Counted from the stretch's first letter, positions 1 through 16,883 are shown. The stretch: DNA of 64,000 nucleotides from Rhodobacter sp. (GCA_048262455.1 JBLXFD010000018.1:7030-71029), one strand, 5' to 3'. Translations and numbers: made by a program. Notes: a model not told the origin generated them from the letters alone.

Positions 1-1406
1 GACGGCTGTACCTGGTCGAGGGCACGCCCGGCTCCGGCAAGACCACGCTGGCGATGAAGTTCCTGCTGGAGGGGCGCGACGCGGGCGAGAAATCGCTTTA
101 CATCACCCTGTCCGAGACGGTGGACGAGCTGCAGTCCGTCGCGCGTTCGCACCACTGGTCGCTGGACGACATCCACCTGCACGAGGTGATCGCCGAGGCG
201 GATTTCGCGCCCGACCAGGAACAATCTCTGCTGCATCCCAGCGATGTCGAACTGGGCGAGACCGTGCGCGGTGTGATGGCGCAGGTCGAGAAGGTGAACC
301 CGGACCGGGTGGTGCTGGACAGCCTGTCGGACCTGCGGCTGCTGGCGCAGAACCCGCTGCGCTACCGCCGGCAGATCCTGGCGCTGAAGCACTTCTTTGC
401 CCGCCGCAACTGCTGCGTGCTGGTGCTGGACGATTGTTCGTCAGAGCCGGGCGACCTGCAGCTGCATTCCATCGCCCACGGCGTCATCGCGCTGGAGCAG
501 CTGTCGAACGACTTCGGCGCGGAACGACGGCGCCTGCGGATCGTCAAGATGCGCGGGCTGAAGTACCGGGGCGGGTATCACGACATCTCGATCCTCACGG
601 GCGGCATCGCCGTCTACCCCCGCCTGATCGCCGCCTCGCACCACCGCGAGTTCGAGCATGATCTCGTCTCCACCGGGATGTCGCGGCTCGACGCGCTGCT
701 GGGGGGCGGGCTGGCGCCGGGCACCAACACGCTGCTGAACGGGCCCGCCGGGGTGGGCAAGACCACCACCGCCGTCCGCTGCATGCTGAGCTTCATGCAG
801 CAGGGCGGCAGGGCGGCACTGTTCCTGTTCGACGAGCGTCTTGCCACGCTGCTGGCCCGGTCCCAGTCGCTGGACATGGACCTGCAGCCCTATATCGACA
901 ACGGCCAGCTGCAGCTGCGCCAGATCGACCCGGCAGAGCTGTCGCCGGGGGAATTCGCGCACCACGTGCAGACCGCGGTGGAACAGGACGACCGCGGCTT
1001 CGTGGTGATCGACAGCCTTAACGCCTACCTGCACGCCATGCCCTCGGACAACTTCCTGCTGCTGCAGATGCACGAACTGCTGAGCTACCTGTCGCAGCAG
1101 GGCGTGGTGTCGCTCATGGTGCTGGGCCAGCACGGGGTTACGGGCGAGCTGCGCAGCGACGTGGACATCAGCTACCTCGCCGACACGGTGATGCTGCTGC
1201 GCTTCTTCGAGGCGGAGGGGATGGTGCGCAAGTCGGTGGCGGTCATAAAGACCCGCACCACCGACCACGAGCGTTCCATCCGCGAGTTCACGATCGATTC
1301 CTCCGGGATCAACTTCGGCCCGCCGATCACATCCTTTTCGGGTATCCTTTCCGGGGTGCCAAGCTATACCCGGGATGCGAGCGCCCTGATGACCGGCAGC
1401 GAATGA
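1..1406 (+). CDS. kaiC: KaiC-family double RecA-domain ATPase (5' end cut by window edge)
   Basis: Track ORF 54..1406 stays open in frame back to nt 3 (..RLYLVEGTPGSGKTTLAMKF..). There are two RecA/KaiC-like halves, each with a Walker A (GTPGSGKTT; GPAGVGKTT) and a hydrophobic strand plus Asp (VVLDSLS; VVIDSLN). The stop overlaps the next start (ATGA at 1403-1406). Confidence 0.85.
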   Translation, partial: RLYLVEGTPGSGKTTLAMKFLLEGRDAGEKSLYITLSETVDELQSVARSHHWSLDDIHLHEVIAEADFAPDQEQSLLHPSDVELGETVRGVMAQVEKVNPDRVVLDSLSDLRLLAQNPLRYRRQILALKHFFARRNCCVLVLDDCSSEPGDLQLHSIAHGVIALEQLSNDFGAERRRLRIVKMRGLKYRGGYHDISILTGGIAVYPRLIAASHHREFEHDLVSTGMSRLDALLGGGLAPGTNTLLNGPAGVGKTTTAVRCMLSFMQQGGRAALFLFDERLATLLARSQSLDMDLQPYIDNGQLQLRQIDPAELSPGEFAHHVQTAVEQDDRGFVVIDSLNAYLHAMPSDNFLLLQMHELLSYLSQQGVVSLMVLGQHGVTGELRSDVDISYLADTVMLLRFFEAEGMVRKSVAVIKTRTTDHERSIREFTIDSSGINFGPPITSFSGILSGVPSYTRDASALMTGSE

Positions 1407-3775
1407 GGGACGGAGACCACGCCTTGGTGACATCCGACGACACTCCGGCGCCGGATCCGGGCGCGGTTGCGGTCTTCACCCCCTACGGGCGCGACTCTGC
1501 CGTGGCGGCGCAGCTGCTGGAAGGCGACGGTATCGCGGTGGCGCCGGCGGGATCCCTGTCGGAGATCGCCGAGATGCTGCGCAGCGGGATCGGCGCCGCG
1601 CTGGTCACCGAGGAATCCCTGACCGGCGATGGGTTCGAGGCGGTGAGGGCGGCGCTGCGCGACCAGCCCGCCTGGTCCGACACCCCCTTCATCGTTCTGG
1701 CCAACGGCGCGGCCGGCGGGCGATCCTCGCAGGCCCGCGCCCGGGTCGACGCGCTGGGCAACGCGGTGCTGCTGTCGCGCCCGCTGCACAGCGAGGAACT
1801 GCTGCGCGCCGTCCGCTCTGCCCTCACCGCCCGCACCCGCCAGCACGAGGCCCGCGAGCGGCTGGAAGAGCTGCAGCTGCGCGAGCAGCAGCTGCGCGAG
1901 AGCGAGGCGAAGTTCCACGCCATCGCCAACTCTGTCGACCAGATGATCTGGTCCACCCTGCCCGACGGCTACCACGACTACTACAACGACCGCTGGTACG
2001 AATACACCGGCGTGCCGCGCGGCTCGACCGACGGCGAGGCCTGGAACGGCATGTTCCACGAGGACGACCAGGAACTGGCATGGCGGGTCTGGCGGCATTC
2101 GCTGGCGACCGGCAAGCCCTACGAGATCGAGTACCGGCTGCGGCACCGCAGCGGCGAGTACCGCTGGGTGCTGGGCCGGGCGCAGGCGGTGCGCGACGAG
2201 GCCGGCAAGATCACCCGCTGGTACGGATCCTGTACCGACATCCATGAAGAGGTGACGGCCCGCGCCCGGCGCGAGGACGACCTGACGCGCCAGCGCGACC
2301 AGGCATGGCACCAGTCGCTGGACCTGATGGCCGTGGCCGCGCCCACGGGCGAGTTCGTGGCGGTGAACGCCGCCTGGACCCGCCTTCTGGGCTGGTCCGA
2401 GGCGGAACTGATCGGCCGGACGAACGTCGACTTTCTCCCGCCCGAGGATCTCGAAGCCAGCATGGAGGTCTTCCGCTCCGTCGCCGAGACGCCGCTGATC
2501 GAGCCCTACGAGGCCCGGGTGCTGCACAAGGACGGCAGCTATCGCTGGTTCGCCTGGACCGCCTCCATGCACGAGGGCAAGCTCTACGCCTCCGGGCGCG
2601 ACGTGACCGAACGCCGGGCCAAGGACGCCGCCCTCGCCGGGGCCGAGGCGGCGCTGCGGCAAAGCCAGAAGCTGGACATGATCGGGCAGCTGACGGGCGG
2701 CGTGGCGCATGACTTCAACAACCTGCTGATGGCGATCCGCGCCAGCATGGACCTGCTGCGCCGACGCCTGCCCGACACCGACCAGACGGTAACCCGCTAC
2801 ATCGACAACGCCATCAGCGCCACCGAGCGGGGCGCCGGGCTGACCCAGCGGATGCTGGCCTTCGCCCGCAAGCAGGACCTGCGCGCCGAGGCGGTGGACG
2901 TGGGCGCCGTGGTGCCCGGCCTGCGCGATCTGCTGCAGCGCGCGCTGGGCCCGCAGGTGGAAATCGCCATAGAGACCGCGCCGGACCTGCCGCCGGCGAT
3001 GGTGGACACCAACCAGTTGGAGATGGCCATCCTGAACCTCGCCGTGAACGGCCGCGACGCCATGGAGGGGGTGGGAGAGCTGACCCTCACCATCGAGTCG
3101 ATGGAGGCCCGCGACTGCCCCGACCTCGCCCCCGGGCGCTACCTGTGCATCTCGGTGCACGACACCGGCGCCGGGATGGACGAAGAGACCCTGTCGCAGG
3201 CGATGGAGCCGTTCTTTACCACCAAGGGCGTCGGCAAGGGCACCGGCCTCGGGCTGTCCATGGTGCACGGGCTGGCCAAGCAGTCGGGCGGCACCTTCGT
3301 GCTGGAAAGCGCGCCGGGCAAGGGCACCACCGCCAAGCTGTACCTGCCCGTGGCTTCCTCCGATACCGCCGTGCCGGTGCCGGCGGCCGAGGACCCCCGC
3401 GCCGGCGGCACCGGGCCGCGCAAGCTGCGGCGGGTGATCCTGACGGTGGACGACGATTTCCTCGTCGCCATGGGCACCACGGGCCTGCTGGAAGACCTCG
3501 GCCACGAGGTGATCGAGGTGCATTCCGGCCGCGAGGCGCTGGAGGCGCTGGCGCAGCGGCCGGACATCGATCTCGTGGTCACCGACCAGGCGATGCCGCG
3601 CATGACGGGGGTCGAACTGGCCCGCCAGATCCGCGCGCTGCGGCCCGACCTGCCGGTGGTGCTGGCCACCGGCTATGCCGACATGCCCGAGGGCGGCGCG
3701 GAATACATCACCGCGCGGCTGGAAAAACCCTTTTCGGATTCGGCCCTTGCGCGCGTGCTGGCGGAACTCGGCTGA
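1403..3775 (+). CDS. Hybrid sensor histidine kinase/response regulator with N-terminal pseudo-receiver and two PAS domains
   Basis: The N-terminal receiver-like region has altered signature residues (LVTEESL instead of an acceptor Asp; LSRP instead of KP). A coiled linker and two PAS modules follow (..EYRWVLGRAQAV.. and ..SYRWFAWTASMH..). H-box GGVAHDFNNLL; HATPase N/G boxes (LAVNGRDAM, DTGAGM, GTGLGLS). The C-terminal receiver is canonical (VDDD, VVTDQAMP, LATGY, EKPF). Confidence 0.9.
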   Translation: MRDGDHALVTSDDTPAPDPGAVAVFTPYGRDSAVAAQLLEGDGIAVAPAGSLSEIAEMLRSGIGAALVTEESLTGDGFEAVRAALRDQPAWSDTPFIVLANGAAGGRSSQARARVDALGNAVLLSRPLHSEELLRAVRSALTARTRQHEARERLEELQLREQQLRESEAKFHAIANSVDQMIWSTLPDGYHDYYNDRWYEYTGVPRGSTDGEAWNGMFHEDDQELAWRVWRHSLATGKPYEIEYRLRHRSGEYRWVLGRAQAVRDEAGKITRWYGSCTDIHEEVTARARREDDLTRQRDQAWHQSLDLMAVAAPTGEFVAVNAAWTRLLGWSEAELIGRTNVDFLPPEDLEASMEVFRSVAETPLIEPYEARVLHKDGSYRWFAWTASMHEGKLYASGRDVTERRAKDAALAGAEAALRQSQKLDMIGQLTGGVAHDFNNLLMAIRASMDLLRRRLPDTDQTVTRYIDNAISATERGAGLTQRMLAFARKQDLRAEAVDVGAVVPGLRDLLQRALGPQVEIAIETAPDLPPAMVDTNQLEMAILNLAVNGRDAMEGVGELTLTIESMEARDCPDLAPGRYLCISVHDTGAGMDEETLSQAMEPFFTTKGVGKGTGLGLSMVHGLAKQSGGTFVLESAPGKGTTAKLYLPVASSDTAVPVPAAEDPRAGGTGPRKLRRVILTVDDDFLVAMGTTGLLEDLGHEVIEVHSGREALEALAQRPDIDLVVTDQAMPRMTGVELARQIRALRPDLPVVLATGYADMPEGGAEYITARLEKPFSDSALARVLAELG

Positions 3776-3943
3776 TTTCATGAGCGCCATGGTAAAAGCG
3801 GAATTCTGCCTGTATCGATTCGCGCGCAAGTGGCGCTCCTGCGCCCAGAGCAACGCGACGGACGCCGCGACCGCAGGCGCACCCTTCTGTCCGGCGCGTT
3901 TTGTCCAAATTGCCCCGGCGGCAACACATCGAAAGAGAGTTTA

Positions 3944-4825
3944 ATGGCTGCTCCAAAAATCTCCGAGGTACTTGCGATCCTGGAAGAGGAGTTCAACGAG
4001 GTCATGCAGGCCTGGTTCAAGACCCAGCGCCGCGAGGGCGTCCGCCGCCCCGACCTGTTTTCGAACGCCGAGAGCGAGCGCCAGCTGGGAGAACTGCTGC
4101 AGGCCTTCATCGACGGCGCCCGGAAGGTCCAGCTGGACCGCCCCGTCGACCTGAGCGACGACAGCTGGACCAACCTGCGCGACATCCTGTCGGAAGTGGC
4201 GCGCGAGCGGCTGGAACGCGGCGTCTCTCCCACCGAGATGGCCACCATGATCCTCGCGCTGAAACAGCCGCTTCACGCGCGCCTGCGCGAGCGGCTGGCG
4301 GGCAAGCCCGACCGGCTGGTCGAGGAGATCACCCAGCTGTCGCGCATCGTCGACGCCTTCGCGATGCACATCAACGAGGAATTCCTGGCCGAGCGTGACC
4401 AGATCATCGACCGCCAGCGCATGGAAATGATGGAACTGTCCACCCCGGTGGTGCAGCTCTGGGAACGGATCCTGACGATCCCGCTGATCGGCACCCTCGA
4501 TTCCGCCCGCGCGCAGGAGGTGATGGAGAACCTGCTGAACTCGATCGTCGAGCACCGGGCCGAGGTGGTGATCGTCGACATCACCGGCGTCAAGGTGGTG
4601 GACACCCAGGTCGCCCAGCACCTGCTGCGGACCGCCGCCGCGGTGCGGCTGATGGGGGCCGAGGCGATCATCAGCGGCATCAGCCCGAAGATCGCCCAGA
4701 CCATGGTGGAACTCGGCGTCGACGTGGGCGAGGTCACCACCCGCCCCAGCATCCGCGCGGCCTTGGCCGACGCCTTCCTGCGGGTCGGCTTCCAGATCCG
4801 CCGGTCGGAAGACTCCCGTGTCTGA
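3944..4825 (+). CDS. rsbR: RsbR-like stressosome scaffold/sensor protein (N-terminal sensor domain + C-terminal STAS)
   Basis: An internal ATG at 3944 is preceded by GAAAGAGAG; the track ORF upstream of it (from 3830) is Arg-rich junk. The C-terminal STAS domain reads ..ELSTPVVQLWERILTIPLIGTLDSARAQ..VVIVDITGVKVVDTQVAQHLL..ISGISPKIAQTMVELG. Confidence 0.85.
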   Translation: MAAPKISEVLAILEEEFNEVMQAWFKTQRREGVRRPDLFSNAESERQLGELLQAFIDGARKVQLDRPVDLSDDSWTNLRDILSEVARERLERGVSPTEMATMILALKQPLHARLRERLAGKPDRLVEEITQLSRIVDAFAMHINEEFLAERDQIIDRQRMEMMELSTPVVQLWERILTIPLIGTLDSARAQEVMENLLNSIVEHRAEVVIVDITGVKVVDTQVAQHLLRTAAAVRLMGAEAIISGISPKIAQTMVELGVDVGEVTTRPSIRAALADAFLRVGFQIRRSEDSRV

Positions 4826-5180
4826 GGCGGCGTCGGTCTACATGGTTGAGAACGTGCTGTTGATCGCGATCCGCGACAACATCACCGATACCGACATCAT
4901 AGGCCTGCAGGAGGAACTGTCCGAGCGCATCGTGTCCGAGCGCGCCCGCGGCATCGTCATCGACATCGCGGCGCTGGAGATCGTCGACACCTTCGTCGGC
5001 CGCATCCTGGCGCAGCTTTCGGCCATCGGCCACCTGCTGGGCGCCGAGACCTACACCGTCGGCATGCAGCCGGCGGTGGCGATGACGCTGGTCGAGCTGG
5101 GGATGGACTTCAAGGGCAGCAAGACCGCGCTCAGCCTGTCGCACGCGCTCCGCGCGCTCAAGGCGAAAGGCCTGGCATGA
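4818..5180 (+). CDS. rsbS: RsbS-like single-STAS-domain stressosome protein
   Basis: 120-aa STAS-only protein (..LLIAIRDNITDTDIIGLQEEL..GIVIDIAALEIVDTFVGRIL..VGMQPAVAMTLVELG). The GTG start overlaps the rsbR stop by 8 nt; an alternative ATG lies at 4842. Confidence 0.8.
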   Translation: MSEAASVYMVENVLLIAIRDNITDTDIIGLQEELSERIVSERARGIVIDIAALEIVDTFVGRILAQLSAIGHLLGAETYTVGMQPAVAMTLVELGMDFKGSKTALSLSHALRALKAKGLA

Positions 5181-5584
5181 AGCCGCCCCAGCCGGGGCTC
5201 GCCGCGACGGTGCCGCTGGAAAAGGAACGCGACATCGCCGCCGCGCGCATCGCGGTGTCGAACGTGCTGGACCAGCTGGGGGCGAAGACACTGGCCAAGG
5301 TGCGCTTCGTCACCGCCGTCTCCGAGATCGCCCGCAACGCGCTGGTGCACGGGCTGGGCGGGGTGCTGGAGATCACCGTGCTGGACACGCCCCGCGGGAT
5401 CCGGGTGCGTTGTACCGACAGCGGCCCCGGCATCCCGGATGTCGAACAGGCGATGTCGGACGGCTACAGCACCGCCGGCAGCCTCGGCAAGGGCCTCGGC
5501 GGGGCGCGCCGGCTGGTCGACCGTTTCCGCATCGAGGCCCGCCCTGACGGCGGCACGATCATCGAGATGACCACGCATATATGA
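5177..5584 (+). CDS. rsbT: RsbT-like GHKL serine-protein kinase / switch protein
   Basis: 135-aa stand-alone GHKL fold with N-box EIARNALVHG, DSGPGIPD and G-box GKGLGGARRL. ATGA overlap with rsbS. Confidence 0.8.
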   Translation: MKPPQPGLAATVPLEKERDIAAARIAVSNVLDQLGAKTLAKVRFVTAVSEIARNALVHGLGGVLEITVLDTPRGIRVRCTDSGPGIPDVEQAMSDGYSTAGSLGKGLGGARRLVDRFRIEARPDGGTIIEMTTHI

Positions 5585-6588
5585 AGCATTCCCTCGACAT
5601 CACCGAACCCAGCGGCATCGCCGAATGCCGCCGCCTGGCACGCCGGCTGGCAGAGCAATGCGGCATGGACGAGGAGCGGATCGAGCGTGTCTCGATCGTC
5701 GCCACCGAGGCCGCCACCAACCTGCTGCGCCACGCCGGCGGCGGGCAGGTGCTGCTGCAGCAGCAGCCGGTGGACGGCAGCCCCTGGCTGGCGCTGGCGG
5801 CGATGGACAAGGGCCCCGGCATCCCCGACCTGGACGAGGCGCAGCAGGACGGCTTTTCCACCGGCTCCAGCTCCGGCACCGGGCTGGGGGCCATGCGGCG
5901 GCTGTCGGACCGGTTCGAGATCACCTCGACCCCCGGCAAGGGCACGCTGCTGCTGTGCGAGATGGGCCGCGGCACCCGCAGCATCGGCGGCGTCGAGGTG
6001 GGGGCCTTCCTTGCCAACTACCCCAAGCAGGAGGCCTGCGGCGACGGCTGGACCGCGCGTAACCGCAAGGGCGTGGTGGAACTGCTGCTGGTGGACGGGC
6101 TGGGCCACGGCGCCAACGCCGAGGTGGCGGCCGCCGAGGCGGTGGAGGCCTTCGACCGGCTGGAGGACCCGAGCCCCGCCCGGCTGATCGCCCAGGTCTC
6201 GAACGAGTTGGCGGGCACCCGCGGCTCGGTCGGCTGCGTGGCGCGGCTGGAGGCGGCGGACGGGCGGCTTTCGCTGGCGGGGATCGGCAATATCTCGGCG
6301 CTGCTGGTCTCCGGCGCCGGCGAGGTCAAGCGGATGATCAGCCGCGAGGGCCGGCTGGGCGGCGCGGTGCGCATGCCCCCGGTCGAGGAGGCCTCGATCC
6401 GTCCCGGCGACACGCTGATCCTGCACACCGACGGGCTGGCCACCCTGCGCTCGGCCACCGATTTCCCCGGAATGGCGCGTCAGAGCCCCGCCATGGTCGC
6501 TGCGATGTTGATGCAGTCGCAAATCCGTGGCACCGACGACGCGGGGGTGTTGGTGGCGCGGCCGGTGCCGCGCGAGGAAGTGCGCTGA
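5581..6588 (+). CDS. RsbT/RsbW-like GHKL module fused to PP2C (SpoIIE-type) phosphatase
   Basis: The N-terminal module has EAATNLLRHAGGG, DKGPGIPD and GTGLGAMRRL. The C-terminal PP2C has motifs GDGW, LLVDGLGHGANAE and LILHTDGL. ATGA overlap with rsbT. Confidence 0.8.
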   Translation: MKHSLDITEPSGIAECRRLARRLAEQCGMDEERIERVSIVATEAATNLLRHAGGGQVLLQQQPVDGSPWLALAAMDKGPGIPDLDEAQQDGFSTGSSSGTGLGAMRRLSDRFEITSTPGKGTLLLCEMGRGTRSIGGVEVGAFLANYPKQEACGDGWTARNRKGVVELLLVDGLGHGANAEVAAAEAVEAFDRLEDPSPARLIAQVSNELAGTRGSVGCVARLEAADGRLSLAGIGNISALLVSGAGEVKRMISREGRLGGAVRMPPVEEASIRPGDTLILHTDGLATLRSATDFPGMARQSPAMVAAMLMQSQIRGTDDAGVLVARPVPREEVR

Positions 6589-7745
6589 TGCAACTCGCGA
6601 ACCTGAAGATCGAGACCGACAAGGACATCCCGCGTCTGCGCGAGCTGGGTCAGGCCGCCGCAGAGGCCTGCGGCATCCAGCGCTTCCACGTCACCCGCGT
6701 CGTCACCGCGCTGCTGGAGATGGGGCGCAACGTGCTGCAGCACGGCGGCGGCGGCAAGCTGCGGCTTTCGCTGATGCGTCGGGGCGACAAGGTGGTGCTG
6801 ATCGCCGATGCCACCGACCAGGGCCCCGGCATCACCGATGTCGAGGGGCACCTGAGCGGCCGGCTGGCCGGTGTCGGGTCGGGCATGGGGCTGGGGCTGC
6901 GCGGTCTTGCCCGGCTGGCCGAGGATCTCGACGTGCAGACCGGCAGCGAGGGCACCCACGTCGCCGCCAGCTTCTCCACCCCCATCGCCCCCGCCGATTT
7001 TGACAAGCGCGCGGCCGAGGTGCTGGCCACGCTGGAACGGCTGAAGCACTCGGACCCCGCCGAAATGCTGGTGCAGCAGAACCGCGACCTGGTGGACGTG
7101 CTGGCAGAGCGCGACCTGCTGATGGCCGAGCTGCACCACCGGGTGAAGAACAACCTGTCGCTGGTCACCGCGCTGATGCGGCTGTCGCGCAAGTCGGCGA
7201 AGTCCGAGGAGACCAAGCAGGTGCTGCGCGACCTCGAGATGCAGATGCGCGCCATCGTGCTGGTGCACGACCGGCTGCAGCACTCCGGCGCCAGCGACCG
7301 GGTGCCCCTGACCCCGCTTCTCGAGGTGGTGGCGCAGCAGTACCGCACTGCCTTCGGCGTCTCCAACCGCGAGGTGGGGGTCGCGGTGCGCGGCGCCGAC
7401 GTGATCCTTGACGGCCGCGCCATCACCGACATCGCGCTGGCGGTGGGCGAACTGATCACCAACGCCCTGAAGCACGCCTTCGTGGGCCGCGACCGGGGCC
7501 TGATCGAGGTCAACGTGGCGCTGGACGACACGCACCTGCTGATCACCGTGGCCGACGACGGCGTCGGCCTGCCCCCCGAGGTCGACCGGCCGGAACGCTC
7601 GGACTCCCTCGGCTGGGTGATGATCCGCAACGCGGTGCAGAAGCATGGCGGCTTCCTGCGGACCCATTCGGAAAAGGGCCTGTCAGTGGAAATGACGCTG
7701 GTGGCCGAAGCGGTGGGCGCCACCCGGCAGGCCGAGGTAATCTGA
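6588..7745 (+). CDS. RsbT-like GHKL module fused to HisKA_2-type histidine kinase
   Basis: N-terminal third RsbT-like module (EMGRNVLQHGGGG, DQGPGITD, GMGLGLRGL), then a HisKA_2 H-box (ELHHRVKNNLSLVTALMRL) and HATPase_c (ELITNALKHAF, DDGVGLP, LGWVMIRN). TGATG overlap with the previous gene. Confidence 0.8.
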   Translation: MQLANLKIETDKDIPRLRELGQAAAEACGIQRFHVTRVVTALLEMGRNVLQHGGGGKLRLSLMRRGDKVVLIADATDQGPGITDVEGHLSGRLAGVGSGMGLGLRGLARLAEDLDVQTGSEGTHVAASFSTPIAPADFDKRAAEVLATLERLKHSDPAEMLVQQNRDLVDVLAERDLLMAELHHRVKNNLSLVTALMRLSRKSAKSEETKQVLRDLEMQMRAIVLVHDRLQHSGASDRVPLTPLLEVVAQQYRTAFGVSNREVGVAVRGADVILDGRAITDIALAVGELITNALKHAFVGRDRGLIEVNVALDDTHLLITVADDGVGLPPEVDRPERSDSLGWVMIRNAVQKHGGFLRTHSEKGLSVEMTLVAEAVGATRQAEVI

Positions 7746-7747
7746 CC

Positions 7748-8920
7748 TCAGACGTGGGTCAGCACGTCGTAATCGTAAATCGACTTCCGAAACTCGTAAT
7801 GCGCCGCCAGCTCCGCGTCCCGCTGGGCCAGGTCCTGGTAGTGGGAATCGTAGCGCATCCCGTTCTTGCGCGCGTTGCGCTGCACCTCGGCCACCCGTTC
7901 CAGCCGCAGCGCCTGGTAGGCCGCCAGCGCCCCCGGCAGGTCGCCCGCCCGGTCCCGCAGGATCCGCGCCAGCGCCGCGCCGTCCTCGATCGACTGGTTC
8001 GCCCCCTGCCCCAGGTGCGGCAGCATCGGGTGCGCGGCATCCCCCAGCAGCACCAGCCGGCCCTCGTGCCAGCGCGCCAGCGGCTCGCGGTCATAAAGGC
8101 CCCAGCGGAAGGTCTGGTCCACCTGCGCCAGCAGCCCGGTCAGGCGATCGTTCCAGCCCGCGAACTCGGCCCGCAGCTGGTCCGGGTCGCCCGGCGCCGA
8201 CCAGCTTTCGCGCATCTCGCCCTCGGCGGGCACGAAGCCGACGAAGTTGATGATCTCGCCCGCGCGCAGGGGGAAGACCAGGAAGTGCTTGCGGTCGCCC
8301 AGCCACATCTCCCAGGCATCGGTGGGCCAATGCGGCGCGCGGGCGTGAGGGATGGTGCCACGATAGGCGATGGAGCCAGAGAAGACCGGCGTCGAGGGCG
8401 GCACCACGTGGGGTTGCAGGACCGAGTGGATGCCGTCGGCGGCGATCACCAGGTCCGCCCCGGCGCTTTCGCCGTTCTCGAACCGCAGCTTCGCCCGGTC
8501 CGCCGTCTGCTCGAACCCGGCACAGCGGTGGCCGGTGCGCACCACCCCCTCCGGCAGGTTGCGCGCCAGCATGTCCACCAGGTCGGCCCGGTGCATCCCG
8601 TAGGTGGCGTTCCAGCCCGACGAGTCGGTGGTCTGAACCCCGGCGATGCGGCTGCCGTCGGCGCGGTAGTAGGCGGAGTTGCCCCCCACCAGCGCGCCGC
8701 GCCGGTGCACCGCGTCCCCCAGCCCGATCCGCTGCATCTGCCGCACGCTGTTGGGCGTCATGAAGACCCCGGCGCCGATCTCGCCCAGTTGCGGGGCCTG
8801 CTCGTAGACGGTGACGGCAAAGCCCTGCGCCAGCAGCGCGTTCGCGGCGTAAAGCCCGCCGATGCCGCCGCCCACCACGGCGATGTTCTGGATCTCGGGC
8901 ACGGTAATCTCTCCGGTCAT
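7748..8920 (-). CDS. FAD-dependent aromatic monooxygenase (salicylate hydroxylase / 3-hydroxybenzoate 6-hydroxylase / NicC-like group A flavoprotein)
   Basis: Motifs VVGGGIGGLYAA (FAD fold), IAADGIHS and LLGDAAHPMLPHLGQGANQSIEDG. ATGA overlap with the upstream reductase gene makes it the last gene of the oxygenase operon. Confidence 0.8.
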   Translation of the reverse strand: MTGEITVPEIQNIAVVGGGIGGLYAANALLAQGFAVTVYEQAPQLGEIGAGVFMTPNSVRQMQRIGLGDAVHRRGALVGGNSAYYRADGSRIAGVQTTDSSGWNATYGMHRADLVDMLARNLPEGVVRTGHRCAGFEQTADRAKLRFENGESAGADLVIAADGIHSVLQPHVVPPSTPVFSGSIAYRGTIPHARAPHWPTDAWEMWLGDRKHFLVFPLRAGEIINFVGFVPAEGEMRESWSAPGDPDQLRAEFAGWNDRLTGLLAQVDQTFRWGLYDREPLARWHEGRLVLLGDAAHPMLPHLGQGANQSIEDGAALARILRDRAGDLPGALAAYQALRLERVAEVQRNARKNGMRYDSHYQDLAQRDAELAAHYEFRKSIYDYDVLTHV

Positions 8921-9906
8921 TGGGTGGAAACGAAGGCGTCGATGTGCAGCGCGTCCGGCGGCAGCCCGCCGCGCGCGGTGAAGTCCCGTTCCGCCGCCTC
9001 GATCAGCCCGGGGGCGCCGCAGGCGTAGACCTCGTGACCGGCGAGCGAGGGGTGATCCTCCAGCACCGCCTCGTGCACCAGGCCGCGGCGGCCGGTCCAG
9101 TCCGGGCCGGGGTCGGAAACTACGGGCGTCACGGTCAGCCAGTCATGCGCGGCCTCCCAGCCGCGCAGCTGGTCCAGCGCGTAAAGCCCCCCGGCCTCCC
9201 GCGCGCCCCAGTACAGGTGCATCGGCCGCCGCGTGTGCCCCTCGATCTGCGCCTCCAGCACCGATTTCAGCGGCGCGTAGCCGGTGGAGCCTGCCAGCAG
9301 GATCGCGGGCACGTCCGAGTTCAGATCGACGCCGAAGGTGCCGAAAGGCAGCTCCACCGTCAGCCGGTCGCCGGGCTCCAGCCGCGACAGCTCGCCGTCA
9401 GAGAACCTGCCGCCGGGGATCACCCGGATATGCAGCTCGCAGCCGTCATTGCGGCGGGGGGCGTTGGCGAGGGAGAAGTTGCGCGTCTCGCCCTCGCCGA
9501 AGGTCACGCGCAGGTACTGGCCGGGGGCGAAGGGCACCCGCGTGCCGATGTCGTAGCGCAGCGACAGCTGCACCACGTCGGGCGCCACCTGCCGCTTGCG
9601 GCGGATCCGGGCCTCCAGCGTGCGGCGGCGAACCGGGTCGACCACCGAGACCGAGGCGGGGGCGATGCACAGGTCCGACTGCGCCTTGGCCTGGCACAGC
9701 AGCACGTCCTCGGCCGGCCCGGTGATGTCGGTGCCGCGCACCCCCGCGTCGCCCGACACGATGCGCCCCGCGCAGGTGTCGCAGACCCCCTTGCGGCAGG
9801 AGTAGGGCAGCGCCAGCCCCTGGCGCTCTGCCGCGTCCAGAAGGGTTTCGCCCGGCTCCACCTCGAAGCTGTGCGGGGTATCCTCGATCGTCACGCTATA
9901 GGCCAT
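8917..9906 (-). CDS. tphA1: Oxygenase reductase component ([2Fe-2S] ferredoxin + FNR-like FAD/NAD(P)H domains), TphA1-like
   Basis: N-terminal plant-type ferredoxin Cys pattern (CRKGVCDTCAG..C), then FNR-like motifs (RNFSLAN; LLAGSTGYAP). It sits in the same operon position as tphA1 of tph operons. Confidence 0.7.
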   Translation of the reverse strand: MAYSVTIEDTPHSFEVEPGETLLDAAERQGLALPYSCRKGVCDTCAGRIVSGDAGVRGTDITGPAEDVLLCQAKAQSDLCIAPASVSVVDPVRRRTLEARIRRKRQVAPDVVQLSLRYDIGTRVPFAPGQYLRVTFGEGETRNFSLANAPRRNDGCELHIRVIPGGRFSDGELSRLEPGDRLTVELPFGTFGVDLNSDVPAILLAGSTGYAPLKSVLEAQIEGHTRRPMHLYWGAREAGGLYALDQLRGWEAAHDWLTVTPVVSDPGPDWTGRRGLVHEAVLEDHPSLAGHEVYACGAPGLIEAAERDFTARGGLPPDALHIDAFVSTQ

Positions 9907-10813
9907 CGACGCCCCCCACCAGCCGCGCCGCGCGCAGCATTCCCTCGGGCGAGGCGACCCCCTGTCCCGCGATGTCGAAGGCCGCGCCGTGGCCGACCGA
10001 GGAGAACAGCACCCCGGCCCCCAGCGACAGGGCAGAGACCGCCTTGCCGCCCGCCAGCTTTACCGGGATGTGCCCCTGGTCGTGGTAGATCGCGACGAAG
10101 GCGTCGTAGCCCTCCCGCTGCAGCAGGGTGTCGGCACCCTCGGGCCCGTGCACGTCCAGCCCCTCGGCGTGCAGCATCGCGATGGCGGGGGCGATCAGGC
10201 GCGCGTCCTCGTCGCCGAACAGCCCGCCCTCGCCCGCGTGGGGGTTGAAGCCCATCACGCCGATCCGGGGCGCCGCGATGCCCAGCCGCCGCAGCCCCGC
10301 GTCGGTGACGCGGACAGCGCGGGCGACAAGGTTTGGGGACACGCGGTTCAGCGCGGTCAGGATCGGCTCGTGCAGCGTGACATGCGCCACCCGCAGCCCG
10401 CCGCCCACCAGCATCAGGAAGACGCTATCGGGCCCGCTGCCCTGCAGTTCCGCCAGCAGGTTCGGATAGCCGGAGAAGCGGCGGCCGGAGGCGTTGATCG
10501 CGGTCTCGGAATGCGGGGCGCCGACGATGCCGGCGGCATCCTCCGCCGCGCAAAGCTCCAGCGCCCGTTCGAGGTAGCCGACGCAGGCGCGGCCCGAGGC
10601 GGGGGTGGGCCGGCCCGGCGCGGCGTCGGCGGGGGCCAGCAACCCGCAGTCCACCAGCCGCCCGCCGTAGCCCGCGCCCTCGGCGAGATGCGCGTCGCCC
10701 ACCACCACGGGCTCCACCCGCCCCTCGCGGCGCAGCGCCTCGGCGGCCTTCAGCGCGATCTCGGGGCCGATGCCGTTCGGATCGCCCATGGTCAGGATCA
10801 CCCGCGCCGCCAT
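9896..10813 (-). CDS. tphB: PdxA-family NAD-dependent dehydrogenase, TphB-like (cis-diol dicarboxylate dehydrogenase/decarboxylase)
   Basis: PdxA-family motifs ILTMGDPNGIGPEI, GFNPHAGEGG, YHDQGHIP and HGAAFDIAG. TphB of terephthalate pathways belongs to this family. It lies between the oxygenase small subunit and the reductase. Confidence 0.7.
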   Translation of the reverse strand: MAARVILTMGDPNGIGPEIALKAAEALRREGRVEPVVVGDAHLAEGAGYGGRLVDCGLLAPADAAPGRPTPASGRACVGYLERALELCAAEDAAGIVGAPHSETAINASGRRFSGYPNLLAELQGSGPDSVFLMLVGGGLRVAHVTLHEPILTALNRVSPNLVARAVRVTDAGLRRLGIAAPRIGVMGFNPHAGEGGLFGDEDARLIAPAIAMLHAEGLDVHGPEGADTLLQREGYDAFVAIYHDQGHIPVKLAGGKAVSALSLGAGVLFSSVGHGAAFDIAGQGVASPEGMLRAARLVGGVDGL

Positions 10814-10815
10814 GG

Positions 10816-11301
10816 TCAGAGCGGCAGGCCCAGCAAGGTGTCGATGTGGCTGCTGTCGCAGATCACCTCGCGCCGGGCCAGCCGCCAGCCGCAGCCGTCG
10901 CGCCGCAGCCGGTCGTGGTAGCTGCCGCTGGCGAACAGGTCGGTCTGCCCGTCGCGCATGATCCGCACCACCAAAAACGAGGTCTCCACCAGCACCTCGC
11001 CGTCCTCCTCGCCGGTGACGAAGGGCTGGGACAGCACGTGGCGGTAGCTGTGGCGTTCGTAGATGTTGGCGTCGCGCAGGGCGGTGACGCGGTCGCGGAT
11101 CATGCCCTTGCCGTCCAGCCAGATCAGCCCCGCCTCCAGCCCCGCGCGGTGGTTCTCGGCCGAGGTGACCTTGTAGAATCCGTCGTGGGTGAAGAACTCC
11201 GGCCAGTCCTCCAGCGCGTCGGCGTCGATGCAGCGGGCATAGCGGACCTGCAGCTGCGAGATCTCGGCCAGCAGGTCGGTGGAAACGGCGTCTTCGCTCA
11301 T
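10816..11301 (-). CDS. tphA3: Rieske ring-hydroxylating oxygenase small (beta) subunit, TphA3-like
   Basis: 161-aa NTF2/SnoaL-like protein. ATGA overlap with the alpha-subunit gene. Confidence 0.75.
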   Translation of the reverse strand: MSEDAVSTDLLAEISQLQVRYARCIDADALEDWPEFFTHDGFYKVTSAENHRAGLEAGLIWLDGKGMIRDRVTALRDANIYERHSYRHVLSQPFVTGEEDGEVLVETSFLVVRIMRDGQTDLFASGSYHDRLRRDGCGWRLARREVICDSSHIDTLLGLPL

Positions 11302-12542
11302 CCCTGCATCCTTTCGCGGTAGGCGTGCCAGAAGCCGCGGATCGAGCCTTCGGAGATCCGGTTGCCCCCGGTGGCGAAGTCGCGCCCGCCCATCTCCAGC
11401 AGTGCCTGCTTGTCGTCCGCCCCGGCGATGCCGCGCTGGACGAAGCCGCCGATGCAGCCGTCCTCCATCGAGACGTAGCCGGCGGGGCCCACCAGGTTCG
11501 ACTGCTTCAGCCGGGTGCGCCGCTGCTCGGGCGTGTCGTCCTCGAAGCCGAAGTAGGTCCAGACGAGTTCCGTCTTGTCGGTGCCCTTGGGCAGGATCTG
11601 ACGGGTGGCCAGGCAGTTCTGGATCTGCTGCAGCACGAAGTTCGGGAAGGCCGACAGGATCTGCAGGGTGATGTCGTCGTCGAATTCCTTGAAGTTCTCC
11701 AGCAGCGACATGTCCGCCAGCTGGTAATCGCTCTGCGAGCGCAGCTGCTCTTGCTGATAGCTTTTCGAGGCCTCCGCCGCGCGGTCCACCGCCGACCAGC
11801 TGACGTGGCTGCCGCCGTCGTCCGAGATCATCAGCCCGCCCTTCATCGACAGCTTGTTCAGTTCGAAGGTGGTGAAGAACAGGTGCAGGATGCTGGCGTG
11901 GTAGCTGTCCTTGGTGTTCTCGACGTAGAGCTTCCAGTTGTTCGGCAGGATCTGCCGGAAGCGGCCCAGCACCACCGGCTTGCGCCCGTCCAGCACCCGT
12001 TTCACCCGCGCGGTGATGTCGGGGCCCAGCATCTCCTCGATGTCGTCGATGTCAGGATCGAAGCTGCCGAAGACCAGCCCGTAAAGCTCCGCCACCCGCA
12101 GCTTGCGGGGGCCGTGGTCGCTTTTGCAGAAGCCTTCCGCCATGCCGCCGGAGCCGTTCAGCCCGTCCTCGAAGGCCACGCCAACAAGGTCGCCCTGCAG
12201 GCTGTGGCGCCAGGCGTGGTAGACGCAGGTGAAGTCGCGCACGTGGCCGCGGTCATCCAGCGCCAGCAGCGCGCCGCGGTGGGCGCAGCGGTTCTCGAAG
12301 GCGTAGACCTGTCCGTCGTGGTCGCGGGTGACGATCACCGGCGTGGTGCCGACGAAGGTGGCGACGTAGTCGCCCGGCTCGGGGATCTCGGCCTCGAGGC
12401 AGAGGTAGTTCCAGCTGTTGCCGCGGAACAGCCGCTCCTGCTCGGCGGCGAGGATCGCGGGGTCGGTGAAGACACGGTAGGGCACACGGTGCACCCCGCC
12501 CTCCCAGTCGAGCAGGCTGTCGTCGCCGGCGGCATCCTTCAT
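11298..12542 (-). CDS. tphA2: Rieske ring-hydroxylating oxygenase large (alpha) subunit, terephthalate 1,2-dioxygenase TphA2-like
   Basis: Rieske motif CAHRGA..CVYHAW and iron site DSYHASILH. Long stretches agree with my recollection of Comamonas TphA2 (YAFENRCAHRGAL; HGPRKLRVA..LVFGSF; LPNNWKLY.EN.KDSYHAS; LQILS.FP.FVLQQIQN). The true ATG at 12542 has GGAGGA 4 nt upstream. The 103 upstream codons of track ORF 11298..12851 run through the repeat array. Confidence 0.8.
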   Translation of the reverse strand: MKDAAGDDSLLDWEGGVHRVPYRVFTDPAILAAEQERLFRGNSWNYLCLEAEIPEPGDYVATFVGTTPVIVTRDHDGQVYAFENRCAHRGALLALDDRGHVRDFTCVYHAWRHSLQGDLVGVAFEDGLNGSGGMAEGFCKSDHGPRKLRVAELYGLVFGSFDPDIDDIEEMLGPDITARVKRVLDGRKPVVLGRFRQILPNNWKLYVENTKDSYHASILHLFFTTFELNKLSMKGGLMISDDGGSHVSWSAVDRAAEASKSYQQEQLRSQSDYQLADMSLLENFKEFDDDITLQILSAFPNFVLQQIQNCLATRQILPKGTDKTELVWTYFGFEDDTPEQRRTRLKQSNLVGPAGYVSMEDGCIGGFVQRGIAGADDKQALLEMGGRDFATGGNRISEGSIRGFWHAYRERMQG

Positions 12543-12560
12543 CGCGTCCTCCACGGTGTT

Positions 12561-12587
12561 CGTATAGCGAACAATGATCGCTATACG
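12561..12587. promoter_or_regulatory. Perfect 10-N7-10 inverted repeat CGTATAGCGA-acaatga-TCGCTATACG, candidate IclR-type operator upstream of tphA2-like gene
   Basis: Read directly from the sequence. It lies 19 nt upstream of the 12542 start, and a near-identical copy is at 13838-13864. Confidence 0.55.
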
Positions 12588-12590
12588 GTC

Positions 12591-12620
12591 ACGGTAGTTG
12601 GGGAGCGGCGGGAGTGTCAA
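12591..12620 (-). promoter_or_regulatory. Possible sigma70-type promoter of the oxygenase operon (TTGACA-N18-TACCGT on minus strand)
   Basis: The minus strand reads cTTGACActcccgccgctccccaacTACCGTgac, immediately upstream of the palindrome. This is a sequence pattern only. Confidence 0.3.
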
Positions 12621-12656
12621 GGCGGGGCGGTGTGATTGGGGGGTGTGCGCGCTTGC

Positions 12657-13028
12657 GGGGTGGCTGGTGTTGCGTGGTGGCGGGGTGAACCCCGCCCTAC
12701 CGCTTCTTGCGAGCGACGCGCTGATGCAGCCCCGAACAAGCCGAAGACGCGGGGCGAGCGCCTGCCCGTTCCGGCGGGGTGGTGTTGCGCGGTGGCGGGG
12801 TAAACCCCGCCCTACGTCCGCTCGAACGAAGCGCTGACAGCCCCCGGACAAGCCGAAGGCGCGGGGGCGAGCGCCTGCCCGTCCCGGCGGGCTGGCGCTG
12901 TGTCATCCTCGTGCAAGGCTCATTCTGCGCGCGGATATGGCGTGGATAAAGCGCCCATGCCGGAGGGAGGTGGCGCCACCCCACGGGCAGGCTCACGTTG
13001 CGCCTTGGCGGGGTGATCCCCGCCCTAC
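12657..13028 (-). repeat. REP/BIME-like repeat array A (three GTAG-palindrome hairpins plus conserved spacer modules)
   Basis: Hairpins GGCGGGGTGAACCCCGCCCTAC at 12679-12700, 12794-12815 (loop variant TAAA) and 13007-13028 (loop variant TGAT). The spacers are homologous to arrays at 16884-17345 and 31015-31408. The last hairpin overlaps the iclR stop codon. Confidence 0.85.
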
Positions 13029-13804
13029 AGCATCCGCGACAGCGCCTCCGCCCGGCGCTGCATGATCGGCAGGAACTCTCCCTTCGCCTGCTCCGGCCCG
13101 ATCCGCGCGATGGAGGCCGAGATGCTCAGCGCCGCGACAGTGCGTCCCTCGGCGTCGCGCACCGGCACCGCGATGGCCAGCATCCCCAGCTCCAGCTCCT
13201 CGCAGATGATCGCGTGCCCGTCGCGGCGCACGGCGGCAATGCTTTCCATGATGCGCTCCGGCTCCGTCAGGGTCTTGGGCGACAAGGGCTCCAGCGGCAC
13301 GCGGCCGAGGTAGGCGCGGACCTCCTCATCTGTGCGGTCCGCCAGCATCACCCGCCCGGTGGCCGAGGCGAAGGCCGGCAGCTTGGCGCCCAGCCGGACG
13401 AAGCCGGTCACCGGGCGCGAGACCTCGGCGCGGGCGACGAACACGGAATGATCCCCCTCCAGCACCGCCAGCGAGATCGACTCGCTCAGCTCGTCGCGGG
13501 TCTCGTCGAGGTGCGGCTGCGCCAGCTGCGGCAGGCTGGTGGTGCCAAAGAAGGCATCCCCCAGCCGCAGCATCCGCGGCGTCGGAACATAGGCCGATCC
13601 CGCCTGCCGCACGTAACCGAGATCCGCCAGCGTCAGCAGGCAGCGCCGAGCGCTGGCGCGCGACAGGCCGGCGTGGCTGGCGGCGCGAGCCACTGTCAGT
13701 TCGCGCCGTTCCGCGGCGAAGGCCTCGATCACGGCCAGCCCCTTGGCCAGCCCCCCCATGGCCTCCGGCGCGCGGGCTTTGCCCTTTGGCGGTGTCTCGG
13801 TCAT
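13025..13804 (-). CDS. IclR-family transcriptional regulator (TphR/PcaR/PobR-like)
   Basis: Winged HTH (..LTVARAASHAGLSRASARRCLLTLADLGYV..) plus an IclR effector domain. ATG 13804 has GAGGGAG 7 nt upstream; the track start (GTG 13834) would leave no leader. Confidence 0.85.
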   Translation of the reverse strand: MTETPPKGKARAPEAMGGLAKGLAVIEAFAAERRELTVARAASHAGLSRASARRCLLTLADLGYVRQAGSAYVPTPRMLRLGDAFFGTTSLPQLAQPHLDETRDELSESISLAVLEGDHSVFVARAEVSRPVTGFVRLGAKLPAFASATGRVMLADRTDEEVRAYLGRVPLEPLSPKTLTEPERIMESIAAVRRDGHAIICEELELGMLAIAVPVRDAEGRTVAALSISASIARIGPEQAKGEFLPIMQRRAEALSRML

Positions 13805-13837
13805 ACCGGTGCTCCCTCGTACAGATCCCTCCACGTT

Positions 13838-13864
13838 CGTATAACGAACAAAGATCGCTATGCG
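13838..13864. promoter_or_regulatory. Second copy of the operator-like palindrome (CGTATAACGA-acaaaga-TCGCTATGCG) in the iclR/TRAP divergent intergenic region
   Basis: 8 of 10 arm positions are self-complementary. 24 of 27 nt are identical to the 12561-12587 site, and the flanks are also similar (cctccac..gttcg). Confidence 0.5.
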
Positions 13865-13972
13865 AATTAATTTCGTGACAAGCCTTCCGGCTTTGTGTCA
13901 CCTTGCGGCAGATCGGACCGCCTGCGCGCCGCCTGGCACGGGATGCGGGCAGACAGACATCAGGGAGGAAAC

Positions 13973-15010: not shown

Positions 15011-15017
15011 CACCGTC

Positions 15018-15551
15018 ATGAGACTGGACGACGCGAATAACGGGGCCGGCCCAGCGCCGGCCCCGCCCGGTGCTGCCTTCCGCACCGTAGAGACCATCGC
15101 GCGCGCCTGCGCGGTGGCCGGCGGGCTGGTGCTGCTGGGCATGGCGCTGATGACCTGCGTCAGCGTCCTGACCCGGCTGTTCGCGGGCCGCCCGATCTTC
15201 GGCATCTTCGAACTGGTCGAGCTGTTCACCGGCATCGCCGTCCTGTCGTTCTTTCCCTACACCCATGTCACCCGGGGCAACGTGGTGGCGGAGTTCTTCA
15301 CCCAGCGCCTGCGCCCGCGCCTGCGGGCGCTGCTGGAACTGGTGGCCGACATCGGGTTCCTCGCCATCGCGGCCTTCGCCTTCTGGCGGGTCTCGGCCGG
15401 CTTCGTGGAGTCGCTGCATAGCCTGAACCGCAGCTTCGTGCTGAACATGCCGGAATGGGTGTTCTACGGCCCCGCCGCCGCCTGGCTGGGGCTGCTGGTG
15501 GTGGTTTCCGTGGCGGTGATGCTGCGCTCGGCCCACCGGGTGCTGCGATGA
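15018..15551 (+). CDS. dctQ: TRAP transporter small permease (DctQ family)
   Basis: 177-aa protein with four predicted TM helices between the DctP and DctM genes. Its stop overlaps the dctM start (ATGA at 15548-15551). Confidence 0.8.
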   Translation: MRLDDANNGAGPAPAPPGAAFRTVETIARACAVAGGLVLLGMALMTCVSVLTRLFAGRPIFGIFELVELFTGIAVLSFFPYTHVTRGNVVAEFFTQRLRPRLRALLELVADIGFLAIAAFAFWRVSAGFVESLHSLNRSFVLNMPEWVFYGPAAAWLGLLVVVSVAVMLRSAHRVLR

Positions 15552-16864: not shown

Positions 16865-16883
16865 CGACGGGTGACGGGGGGCC

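Follow-up and report, generated by a model that had tools for sequence, protein, structure and literature searches.

A sigma-B-less stressosome-type cassette with RsbT-like domains on both its phosphatase and its HisKA_2 kinase in marine and saline Alphaproteobacteria

Introduction

The Bacillus subtilis system RsbRST-RsbU-RsbV-RsbW-SigB-RsbX comprises an RsbR/RsbS scaffold with phospho-acceptors, a GHKL kinase encoded at the third position and the PP2C phosphatase RsbX. RsbRST(X) modules with two-component or cyclic di-GMP (c-di-GMP) outputs have figured in catalogues since 2005 and were studied in Vibrio (PMC9237108, PMC10014275, PMC4976288), where an interaction between RsbT and D1 was not detectable and the coupling step was left unexplained (PMC9237108). 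Here we analyzed a stretch of 64,000 nucleotides from Rhodobacter sp. (GCA_048262455.1 JBLXFD010000018.1:7030-71029), the whole of which is called the window in the following. Seven co-directional genes lie at its beginning, the first two of which encode a KaiC-like ATPase and a hybrid histidine kinase. The remaining five (bases 3944-7745) are a self-contained unit with the order RsbR-RsbS-RsbT-(RsbT-like+PP2C)-(RsbT-like+HisKA_2), whose last two members are referred to as genes 6 and 7. The most informative feature of this cassette, which had been overlooked in an earlier reading of the same DNA (the original prediction), is that the phosphatase and the output kinase each carry a fused RsbT-like domain.

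The combination of a stressosome with two-component proteins is a known and widespread design, of which the HisKA_2 variant is an unstudied alphaproteobacterial form. In Vibrio vulnificus and V. brasiliensis, the rsbRSTX genes with D1 and D2 are likewise devoid of sigma B and show the order R-S-T-phosphatase, directly followed by a sensor kinase that presumably serves as the output. The Vibrio RsbR is a heme globin-coupled sensor, though, whereas the RsbR of the window belongs to the non-heme RsbRD_N type, and the Vibrio RsbX has been described as a single-domain protein, whereas the phosphatase of the window carries an RsbT-like domain. Furthermore, the Vibrio output consists of a large kinase and a c-di-GMP regulator, while the window encodes a receiver-less HisKA_2 kinase of 385 amino acids with an RsbT-like N-terminus, which D1 may or may not share, and no adjacent regulator. 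The MtR/MtS/MtT/MtX system of Moorella thermoacetica also has a non-sigma output and includes, in MtS and MtX, the closest solved relatives of RsbS and of the phosphatase, but its output is a GGDEF enzyme (diguanylate cyclase) and MtX is a single-domain phosphatase. With B. subtilis the cassette shares the phospho-acceptor-bearing scaffold, the GHKL kinase in third position and the RsbX-type PP2C, whereas RsbU, RsbV, RsbW and sigma B are absent from it. The role of RsbT as an activator of RsbU may here be built into the output proteins themselves in the form of the fused domains.

In the literature searched, outside which the Pane-Farre surveys of 2005 and 2017 lay, we found no description of the HisKA_2 variant, of RsbT-like domains on phosphatase and kinase, or of any stressosome in roseobacters or Phaeobacter. 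Nor did it contain a study of a sigma-B-less RsbRST cassette with a HisKA_2 kinase, in agreement with the original prediction, which had known of no study of the combined architecture.

Results

RsbT paralogues at the N-termini of genes 6 and 7

Pairwise comparisons showed that genes 6 and 7 each start with an RsbT paralogue, so that the cassette possesses three RsbT-like modules, one free and two fused. In BLAST alignments, the N-terminal domain of gene 6 (6N) is 38% identical to RsbT (E = 8e-21) and that of gene 7 (7N) 34% (E = 5e-15); all three pairs range from 33 to 38% identity, the remaining one with E = 2e-14. The N, G1 and G2 boxes are retained in RsbT, 6N and 7N, and the corresponding residues of 7N are invariant in 24 gene-7 orthologues. 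Pfam assigned HATPase_c_2 to residues 10-124 of gene 6 (1e-14) and, in two stretches, to gene 7, in which the N-terminal HATPase_c_2-type domain comprises residues 1-130. The homology of 7N to RsbT rests on Pfam, pairwise BLAST and the profile alignment program hhalign; a phmmer search of the PDB with the 7N domain alone disclosed only noise.

The second half of gene 6 is a SpoIIE-type phosphatase domain (3e-13), whose closest solved relatives are Moorella MtX (3zt9, 1e-14) and B. subtilis RsbX (3w40, 2e-7). Among 24 homologues from several phyla there is no variation at residues D155, D172, G173, D284, G285, D319 and D320, nor at the ATP-binding residues of the N-terminal domain. Fold, metal-binding Asp residues and the position directly after rsbT place the protein among the RsbX-type phosphatases, the N-terminal GHKL domain being an extra in comparison with classical RsbX. 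An RsbU-type activating phosphatase was considered as well and rejected, because the PP2C half resembles RsbX and MtX.

Gene 7 contains the H-box ELHHRVKNNL with His183-His184 at 7134-7139, and lacks a receiver domain. It scored 61 bits with HisKA_2 (1e-16; cut-off 22.3) and 34 bits with HWE_HK (5e-8; cut-off 22.8). An AlphaFold model (predicted local distance difference test, pLDDT, 82) reproduced the same domain order, and the EL346 histidine kinase of Erythrobacter (4r39) was the top match by both Foldseek and phmmer. With a HisKA_2-type DHp domain, an HxxKN H-box and a catalytic HATPase_c domain, gene 7 thus belongs to the HWE/HisKA_2 kinases.

RsbR, RsbS and the free RsbT

The first three genes provide an RsbR-type sensor with a STAS domain, a single-STAS RsbS and a GHKL kinase in third position, which are the constituents of a stressosome as far as it can be recognized from genes alone. 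They are translationally coupled by overlaps at 4818/4825, where the GTG of rsbS (4818) precedes the stop codon TGA of rsbR (4823-4825), and at 5177/5180, where rsbS and rsbT share an ATGA. In RsbR, Pfam recognized RsbRD_N (3e-17) and STAS (2e-15). Both Thr phospho-acceptors, within the motifs GTLD and VVDT, are retained in alignment with Listeria RsbR. The start of RsbR is best placed at ATG 3944, because of the ribosome-binding site GAAAGAGAG and the agreement with the lengths of orthologues, while the first in-frame GTG (3830) is less likely. At the phospho-acceptor site of RsbS a DT motif (Thr) is present, in contrast to DS in Moorella and Listeria. The third protein matches SpoIIAB (1til, 1e-7).

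We also considered that these genes encode a small partner-switching circuit of STAS antagonist, GHKL kinase and PP2C, which never assembles into a megadalton stressosome. Proteins in which kinase and phosphatase are fused and which act on one STAS protein do exist elsewhere, for instance those of the SypE and HsbR types. Such a circuit is nevertheless very improbable in view of the RsbRD_N sensor on RsbR, the separate RsbS and the strict order R-S-T. Moreover, among solved structures the STAS domain of RsbR is most closely related to RsbR of the V. vulnificus stressosome (7o0i_B, 7e-37; Listeria RsbR, about 1e-31) and RsbS to Moorella MtS (2vy9, 3e-23; Listeria RsbS, 1e-20), and the V. vulnificus and Moorella proteins both form stressosome cores.

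Distribution of the cassette in Alphaproteobacteria

Orthologous loci were searched by means of aligned gene-7 orthologues, each GTDB species being represented by a single genome, and only the full-length architecture was counted. All 72 loci obtained belong to marine or saline Alphaproteobacteria, among them many Roseobacteraceae, Erythrobacteraceae and other Sphingomonadales, as well as Parvularcula, Oricola, Roseibium, Pararhizobium and relatives of Acuticoccus. The gene order R-S-T-6-7 is unbroken in 66 loci; the six exceptions are due to contig ends or a divergent RsbR N-terminus. The flanks are lineage-specific, as the clustered flanking open reading frames of 73 loci share no family beyond single genera, and the nearest genes (66 upstream and 67 downstream) code according to Pfam for scattered transporters and enzymes, with receiver domains in four only. 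Neither the clustering nor the Pfam analysis of the nearest neighbors disclosed a conserved partner regulator beside the cassette. The complete architecture formed about two dozen 50%-identity clusters in a HMMER search of 1.84 billion representative proteins, and the HisKA_2 version is therefore a small family. A profile search with the alignment of 7N and the adjoining linker returned mostly short gene fragments and no census of fused output domains.

The nearest named relatives are Tranquillimonas and Limimaricola. Some genomes harbor two copies of the whole cassette, namely Sphingomicrobium aquimarinum, on one contig (L058 and L062), and Alloyangia pacifica KcN7-14 (L050 and L054). In Phaeobacter inhibens DSM 17395 the cassette (NC_018291.1 79498-83316, corresponding to 6331-10149 of locus L087; PGA1_RS18475-18495) resides on the 262-kb chromid pPGA1_262, where its genes are annotated only as 'STAS domain-containing' or 'ATP-binding' proteins. 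It lies about 5.5 kb upstream of the paaZ gene, which is located where the tropodithietic acid (TDA) cluster begins. In PLSDB, cassette-bearing plasmids were found in 58 cases from Phaeobacter, and in one case each from Alloyangia and Salipiger.

Related cassettes in other phyla

Full-length homologues of gene 6 with about 40% identity occur in many phyla. Five of their loci, from Massilia, Nitrospira, Sulfotelmatobacter of the Acidobacteria, Isosphaeraceae of the Planctomycetes, and Methylomirabilota (L081-L083, L088, L089), were compared and share the order RsbR (RsbRD_N+STAS), RsbS, RsbT, a HATPase_c_2+SpoIIE protein, a HATPase_c_2+HisKA+HATPase_c+receiver protein and a second hybrid kinase. 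An exception is the output kinase of Massilia, on which Pfam marked only HisKA and HATPase_c and whose 7N domain is degenerate. In this domain (L081 7029-7440) the Asn of the N box and the G1 motif DxGxG are gone, leaving it pseudo-kinase-like, but its position and the linker are kept. The 7N domain and the linker motif DPxxEL..QN.EL could be aligned across the cassettes of Alphaproteobacteria and of other phyla, and in profile-profile comparisons by hhalign the respective domains of the two groups were reciprocal best matches (RsbT with RsbT, 231; 6N with 6N, 266; 7N with 7N, 190).

Because of the same gene contexts, the aligned 7N domain and linker and the profile pairing, the comparison shows the cassette of the window as the alphaproteobacterial version of a broad cross-phylum class. 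Both versions have the first four genes in common, and in both an RsbT-like domain with the linker opens the output kinase. They differ in the part that follows, which is a HisKA core with a C-terminal receiver and then a second hybrid kinase in the other phyla, and a HisKA_2 kinase without receiver and with nothing following in the window. In the alphaproteobacterial form, a HisKA_2 core thus takes the place of the HisKA hybrid behind the conserved T-like domain and linker, the receiver and the second kinase being absent. No paper describing the cross-phylum class as such was found in the literature searched.

How the fused domains may couple the stressosome to its output

Taken as a whole, we regard it as reasonably probable that the cassette is a self-contained stressosome-type unit with an orphan HisKA_2 output kinase, coupled by means of fused RsbT-like domains. 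RsbR and RsbS would form the STAS scaffold and sensor, and RsbT would be the switch Ser/Thr kinase. The product of gene 6 would serve as the RsbX-type reset phosphatase and that of gene 7, an orphan HisKA_2 histidine kinase, as the output. Through their fused domains, phosphatase and kinase could engage the RsbR/RsbS scaffold directly, like free RsbT, or possibly bind free RsbT. Depending on its phosphorylation, the scaffold would then gate the autophosphorylation of gene 7 through the helical linker, and the phosphatase would be recruited likewise to reset the scaffold. A weaker step is the last one, in which gene 7 would pass its phosphate to a receiver encoded elsewhere. That the Massilia 7N domain has lost its ATP-binding motifs and yet stays in place hints at binding, not catalysis, as the conserved role of this domain.

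Several points weigh against this proposal. The label RsbT was given to the third protein by position and family only. In the profile comparisons, the 7N-7N score of 190 lies barely above the scores of 7N with RsbT (177-186). That the fused domains dock on the STAS scaffold is itself deduced from the sequences, and their ATP-binding residues, which do not vary among the alphaproteobacterial orthologues and most of the others, fit kinase activity as well as docking.

The fused GHKL domains might accordingly be autonomous Ser/Thr kinases or dimerization partners of RsbT instead of scaffold-docking modules. Released RsbT would in this case activate gene 7 either by binding, as a GHKL heterodimer comparable to RsbT-RsbU, or by phosphorylation, as suggested for Vibrio D1. 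SpoIIAB/RsbW-type kinases indeed act as dimers, and every cassette, alphaproteobacterial or from another phylum, retains a free RsbT, while the orthologues show no variation at the N-box, G1 and G2 residues of either fused domain. We consider this explanation rather doubtful, since the Massilia output kinase keeps the domain despite its decayed ATP-binding motifs and the Vibrio authors did not detect an interaction of RsbT with D1 (PMC9237108), but the present data do not separate it from scaffold docking.

The target of the output kinase

HWE/HisKA_2 kinases coordinate the general stress response of Alphaproteobacteria (PMC11580852, PMC5898713). The studied members mostly converge on PhyR or on single-domain regulators (PMC11580852, PMC5898713, PMC5964349). 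Because of this habit of the family, and because an orphan receiver-less kinase fits such a network, the likeliest phosphate target of gene 7 might be PhyR, or else one of the single-domain response regulators in the PhyR-NepR-EcfG network, an assignment that we make only tentatively. Gene 7 has the HisKA_2 H-box and the EL346-like fold of DHp and catalytic (CA) domains in common with PhyK, the Pak kinases, LovK and EL346, and its orphan state is usual for this family. Those kinases, however, sense by PAS, LOV or periplasmic domains, whereas gene 7 has an RsbT-like domain and is part of a stressosome operon.

The search for genomic links with PhyR lent this assignment no support. Neither phyR, nepR, ecfG nor a conserved receiver was found beside the cassette among the 66 upstream and 67 downstream neighbors; for sigma and PhyR-type families this negative covers the 25 most frequent of 73 and 77 Pfam families, so that an occurrence at a single locus is possible. 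An EcfG-type promoter upstream of rsbR was not enriched (6 of 71 loci, 4.0 expected), and in the window no such motif precedes the cassette. The sole exact copy (GGAAC-N16-CGTT) in the 64 kb lies at 40991-41015 on the minus strand and may be due to chance, 0.55 copies being expected. With the NCBIfam model of PhyK (HisKinPhyk), gene 7 scored 82.5 bits at a cut-off of 750 and is thus not a PhyK equivalog; by this score and by the missing phyR linkage it differs from the PhyK/Pak group. The stressosome-to-PhyR bridge put forward in the original prediction is plausible, yet it found no support in synteny, promoter motifs or family cut-offs.

It is also possible, and has to be taken seriously, that gene 7 serves a dedicated regulator elsewhere, for example of motility, c-di-GMP or secondary metabolism, instead of the general stress response, HisKA_2 being merely the locally available kinase flavor. 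The negative results on phyR, nepR and ecfG linkage in the neighbor families listed, on EcfG promoters and on the PhyK score, which lies far under the cut-off, are all compatible with such a role. In addition, what the Vibrio stressosome influences is motility and the metabolism of iron and glucose, not a classic general stress response (PMC9237108, PMC10014275), and the Phaeobacter cassette is a near neighbor of the TDA antibiotic cluster on the chromid. This explanation is opposed by the said convergence of HWE/HisKA_2 kinases on PhyR or single-domain regulators, and by the fact that the alphaproteobacterial lineage is precisely the one in which the receiver and the second hybrid kinase were lost, which fits plugging into an orphan-kinase network that already existed.

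A response regulator with an N-terminal receiver is encoded at 21838-22572 (+); its C-terminal region of about 110 amino acids gave no Pfam match at E <= 1e-5, and no counterpart was found near the cassette in the other loci. It is followed by a gene for a hemerythrin-domain protein (22601-23134, +). The EcfG-type motif is located 15 nt upstream of a gene for a DeoC/LacD-family aldolase (39987-40976), which adjoins a polyhydroxybutyrate (PHB) cluster with PhaR (41590-42150), a phasin (42289-42825), PhaC (42991-44847) and a PHB depolymerase (44890-46290).

Gene layout and the KaiC-like pair

The seven reading frames fill positions 1-7745 and exhibit a GC content at third codon positions of 0.84-0.92, as do real genes in DNA of about 70% GC (Table 1). 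Besides the junctions mentioned above, kaiC and the hybrid kinase gene are linked by ATGA (1403-1406), rsbT and gene 6 by ATGA (5581-5584), and genes 6 and 7 by TGATG (6586-6590), whereas a spacer separates the kaiC-kinase pair from the five rsb genes. On re-checking, the seven genes, all start/stop overlaps and the 168-nt spacer given in the original prediction were confirmed, and its domain calls (KaiC, hybrid histidine kinase, RsbR, RsbS, RsbT, PP2C, HisKA_2) were all recovered by Pfam well above the curated cut-offs. Also supported was its view of an RsbR/S/T module that lacks sigma B and whose last gene codes for a HisKA_2 kinase; the phosphatase is of the RsbX type. The list of domains was incomplete, as it lacked the N-terminal RsbT-like GHKL domains of genes 6 and 7 and a pseudo-receiver of the hybrid kinase, and kaiC, rightly assigned to the KaiC family with two Walker A sites, is not a complete gene.

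Table 1. Features at positions 1-7745 of the window
Feature	Position	Strand	Domains and remarks
KaiC-like double RecA-type ATPase, 5'-truncated	1..1406	+	Pfam KaiC ATPase 7e-50, two stretches
Hybrid histidine kinase	1403..3775	+	pseudo-receiver ~1460-1852; PAS_3 1979-2227; PAS_4 2309-2620
Hybrid histidine kinase, C-terminal part	HisKA 2684-2875; HATPase_c 3005-3355; receiver 3437-3748	+	Pfam
Spacer, likely site of the cassette's own promoter	3776..3943	.	168 nt
RsbR	3944..4825	+	RsbRD_N non-heme-globin-type sensor 3977-4285; C-terminal STAS 4457-4756
RsbS, single-STAS scaffold protein	4818..5180	+	Pfam STAS 4e-9
RsbT-position GHKL serine-kinase-type protein, 135 aa	5177..5584	+	Pfam HATPase_c_2 1e-11
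Gene 6, RsbT-like GHKL + RsbX-type PP2C	5581..6588	+	RsbT-like GHKL 5581-5955; PP2C 5992-6561; Pfam
Gene 7, putative output kinase, 385 aa	6588..7745	+	RsbT-like GHKL 6588-6980; linker + HisKA_2 DHp 6990-7286; HATPase_c 7299-7703

The kaiC frame is open from base 3, and since the window starts inside the gene, about 35 N-terminal residues are missing in comparison with the orthologue of the metagenomic locus L085. The product contains two RecA-like domains with the Walker A sites GSGKT and GVGKT, and its best PDB match by sequence is KaiC (8zn5_B, 2e-47). It remained below the cut-offs of the NCBIfam KaiC equivalogs (218 versus 408 and 133 versus 546 bits), it reads S-Y at the position of S431/T432 of Synechococcus elongatus KaiC, and no kaiB was found between or beside the genes in the window and in L085. 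The protein is best called KaiC-like, judging from these characters, and not a clock KaiC. The N-terminal 140 amino acids or so of the hybrid kinase gave profile matches with CheY-fold receivers (RR468, 4ja2, 8e-5); a Glu stands in place of the acceptor Asp. This pseudo-receiver with the motif TEE is common to the KaiC-adjacent kinases (window, 1403-1870; L084, 11793-12230; L015, 12776-13220; Limimaricola, e.g., L001, 16011-16430) and heads two different kinase cores, a HisKA hybrid in the window and Limimaricola, and one of the HWE type in the Acuticoccus lineage. Contact with KaiC may be made by this domain.

KaiC-like modules of Pseudomonas, in which the KaiC homologue and a kinase form conserved, physically interacting pairs that contribute to stress resistance, have been described (bioRxiv 10.1101/2022.01.26.477890). 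The modules of P. putida and P. protegens resemble the pair of the window in that a KaiB-less KaiC homologue is translationally coupled to a (hybrid) kinase; they differ in that the window kinase has the Asp-to-Glu pseudo-receiver before its PAS domains and that no single-domain regulator is adjacent in the window.

In the original prediction, the seven genes were taken as one combined architecture, and recurrence of kaiC adjacency in orthologous loci was named as a check. The former view could not be upheld, since the cassette stands by itself as a five-gene unit with conserved order and varying flanks. Adjacency does recur, but KaiC was found within 10 kb of the cassette in 8 of 72 loci only, and in three arrangements. 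It lies immediately upstream in the window and in L085 (89% identical), 3.5 kb downstream beyond two unrelated genes in seven Limimaricola genomes, and directly downstream in both L015 and Acuticoccus L084, where its partner is an HWE kinase, followed in L084 by a single-domain regulator. L085 and Limimaricola have conserved the kaiC-kinase pair of the window. We concluded that KaiC adjacency is not a property of the cassette and that the pair is a separate module, linked to it in some lineages only.

This bears on the reading of all seven genes as one pathway, in which a signal of timing or energy state would pass from the KaiC-like ATPase and the hybrid kinase to the stressosome and from there to PhyR. 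The genes are co-directional and only 168 nt apart, the same order is present in L085, and KaiC is a neighbor of the cassette in seven Limimaricola loci as well as, independently and beside a different kinase type, in Acuticoccus L084 and L015. Two or three independent adjacencies in about 25 genera, compared with some 0.1 expected by chance (a rough estimate from 20 kb per 4-Mb genome), are above expectation, so that a functional link of KaiC with the cassette in single lineages is possible. As a general pathway it is unlikely, however, because 64 loci are without KaiC within 10 kb, because position and distance of KaiC vary where it is present, and because close relatives (the Tranquillimonas metagenome-assembled genome L086, L. 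pyoseonensis and L. hongkongensis) lack it near the cassette. Likewise, KaiC-like proteins with kinases are independent modules elsewhere. The original suggestion that KaiC could provide an input to the stressosome was thus not supported.

The upstream gene is unrelated or divergent in most other loci, and there the cassette must therefore possess its own promoter. In the window, the first 60 nt or so of the spacer (3776-3835) are about 93% identical to L085 6190-6250 while the remainder diverges, which makes them a candidate promoter or operator of the rsb cassette. The kaiC-kinase pair is probably transcribed on its own. A simple scan of the spacer disclosed no terminator-like and no sigma-70-like site, and its RNA folding was no better than that of shuffled sequences (z = 0.81). 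As a point on the other side, read-through from the kaiC-kinase pair into the cassette is conceivable, because no terminator was found.

Downstream of the cassette no sigma factor, anti-sigma factor or RsbV/RsbW gene was found, as predicted. Instead, positions 7748-18597 are occupied by a convergent cluster for the catabolism of aromatic acids. It codes for an FAD monooxygenase, an Fer2/FAD/NAD reductase, a PdxA-like dehydrogenase, the alpha and beta subunits of a Rieske oxygenase, an IclR regulator, a TRAP transporter (DctPQM) and a second FAD monooxygenase.

Discussion

How a stressosome is coupled to its output outside the Firmicutes is an open question, and in Vibrio no interaction of RsbT with the kinase has been shown. 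The occurrence of an RsbT-like domain on both the output kinase and the reset phosphatase, from Nitrospira to the roseobacters, suggests a concrete coupling mechanism that can be tested. P. inhibens DSM 17395 is genetically tractable and hence a ready experimental system for the cassette.

The most far-reaching version of this mechanism would have the stressosome capture and release the HisKA_2 kinase via the fused RsbT paralogue, a second copy recruit the phosphatase, and the signals run to PhyR-NepR-EcfG, in some lineages with an input by KaiC. In this full form it is doubtful. Nothing relevant to a link between stressosome, HisKA_2 kinases and PhyR was found in the literature searched. As gene 7 belongs to the kinase family which normally drives the PhyR response, the alphaproteobacterial version of the cassette could link two textbook stress systems. 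If this is true, the stress paradigms of Gram-positive bacteria and of Alphaproteobacteria would be joined in one pathway.

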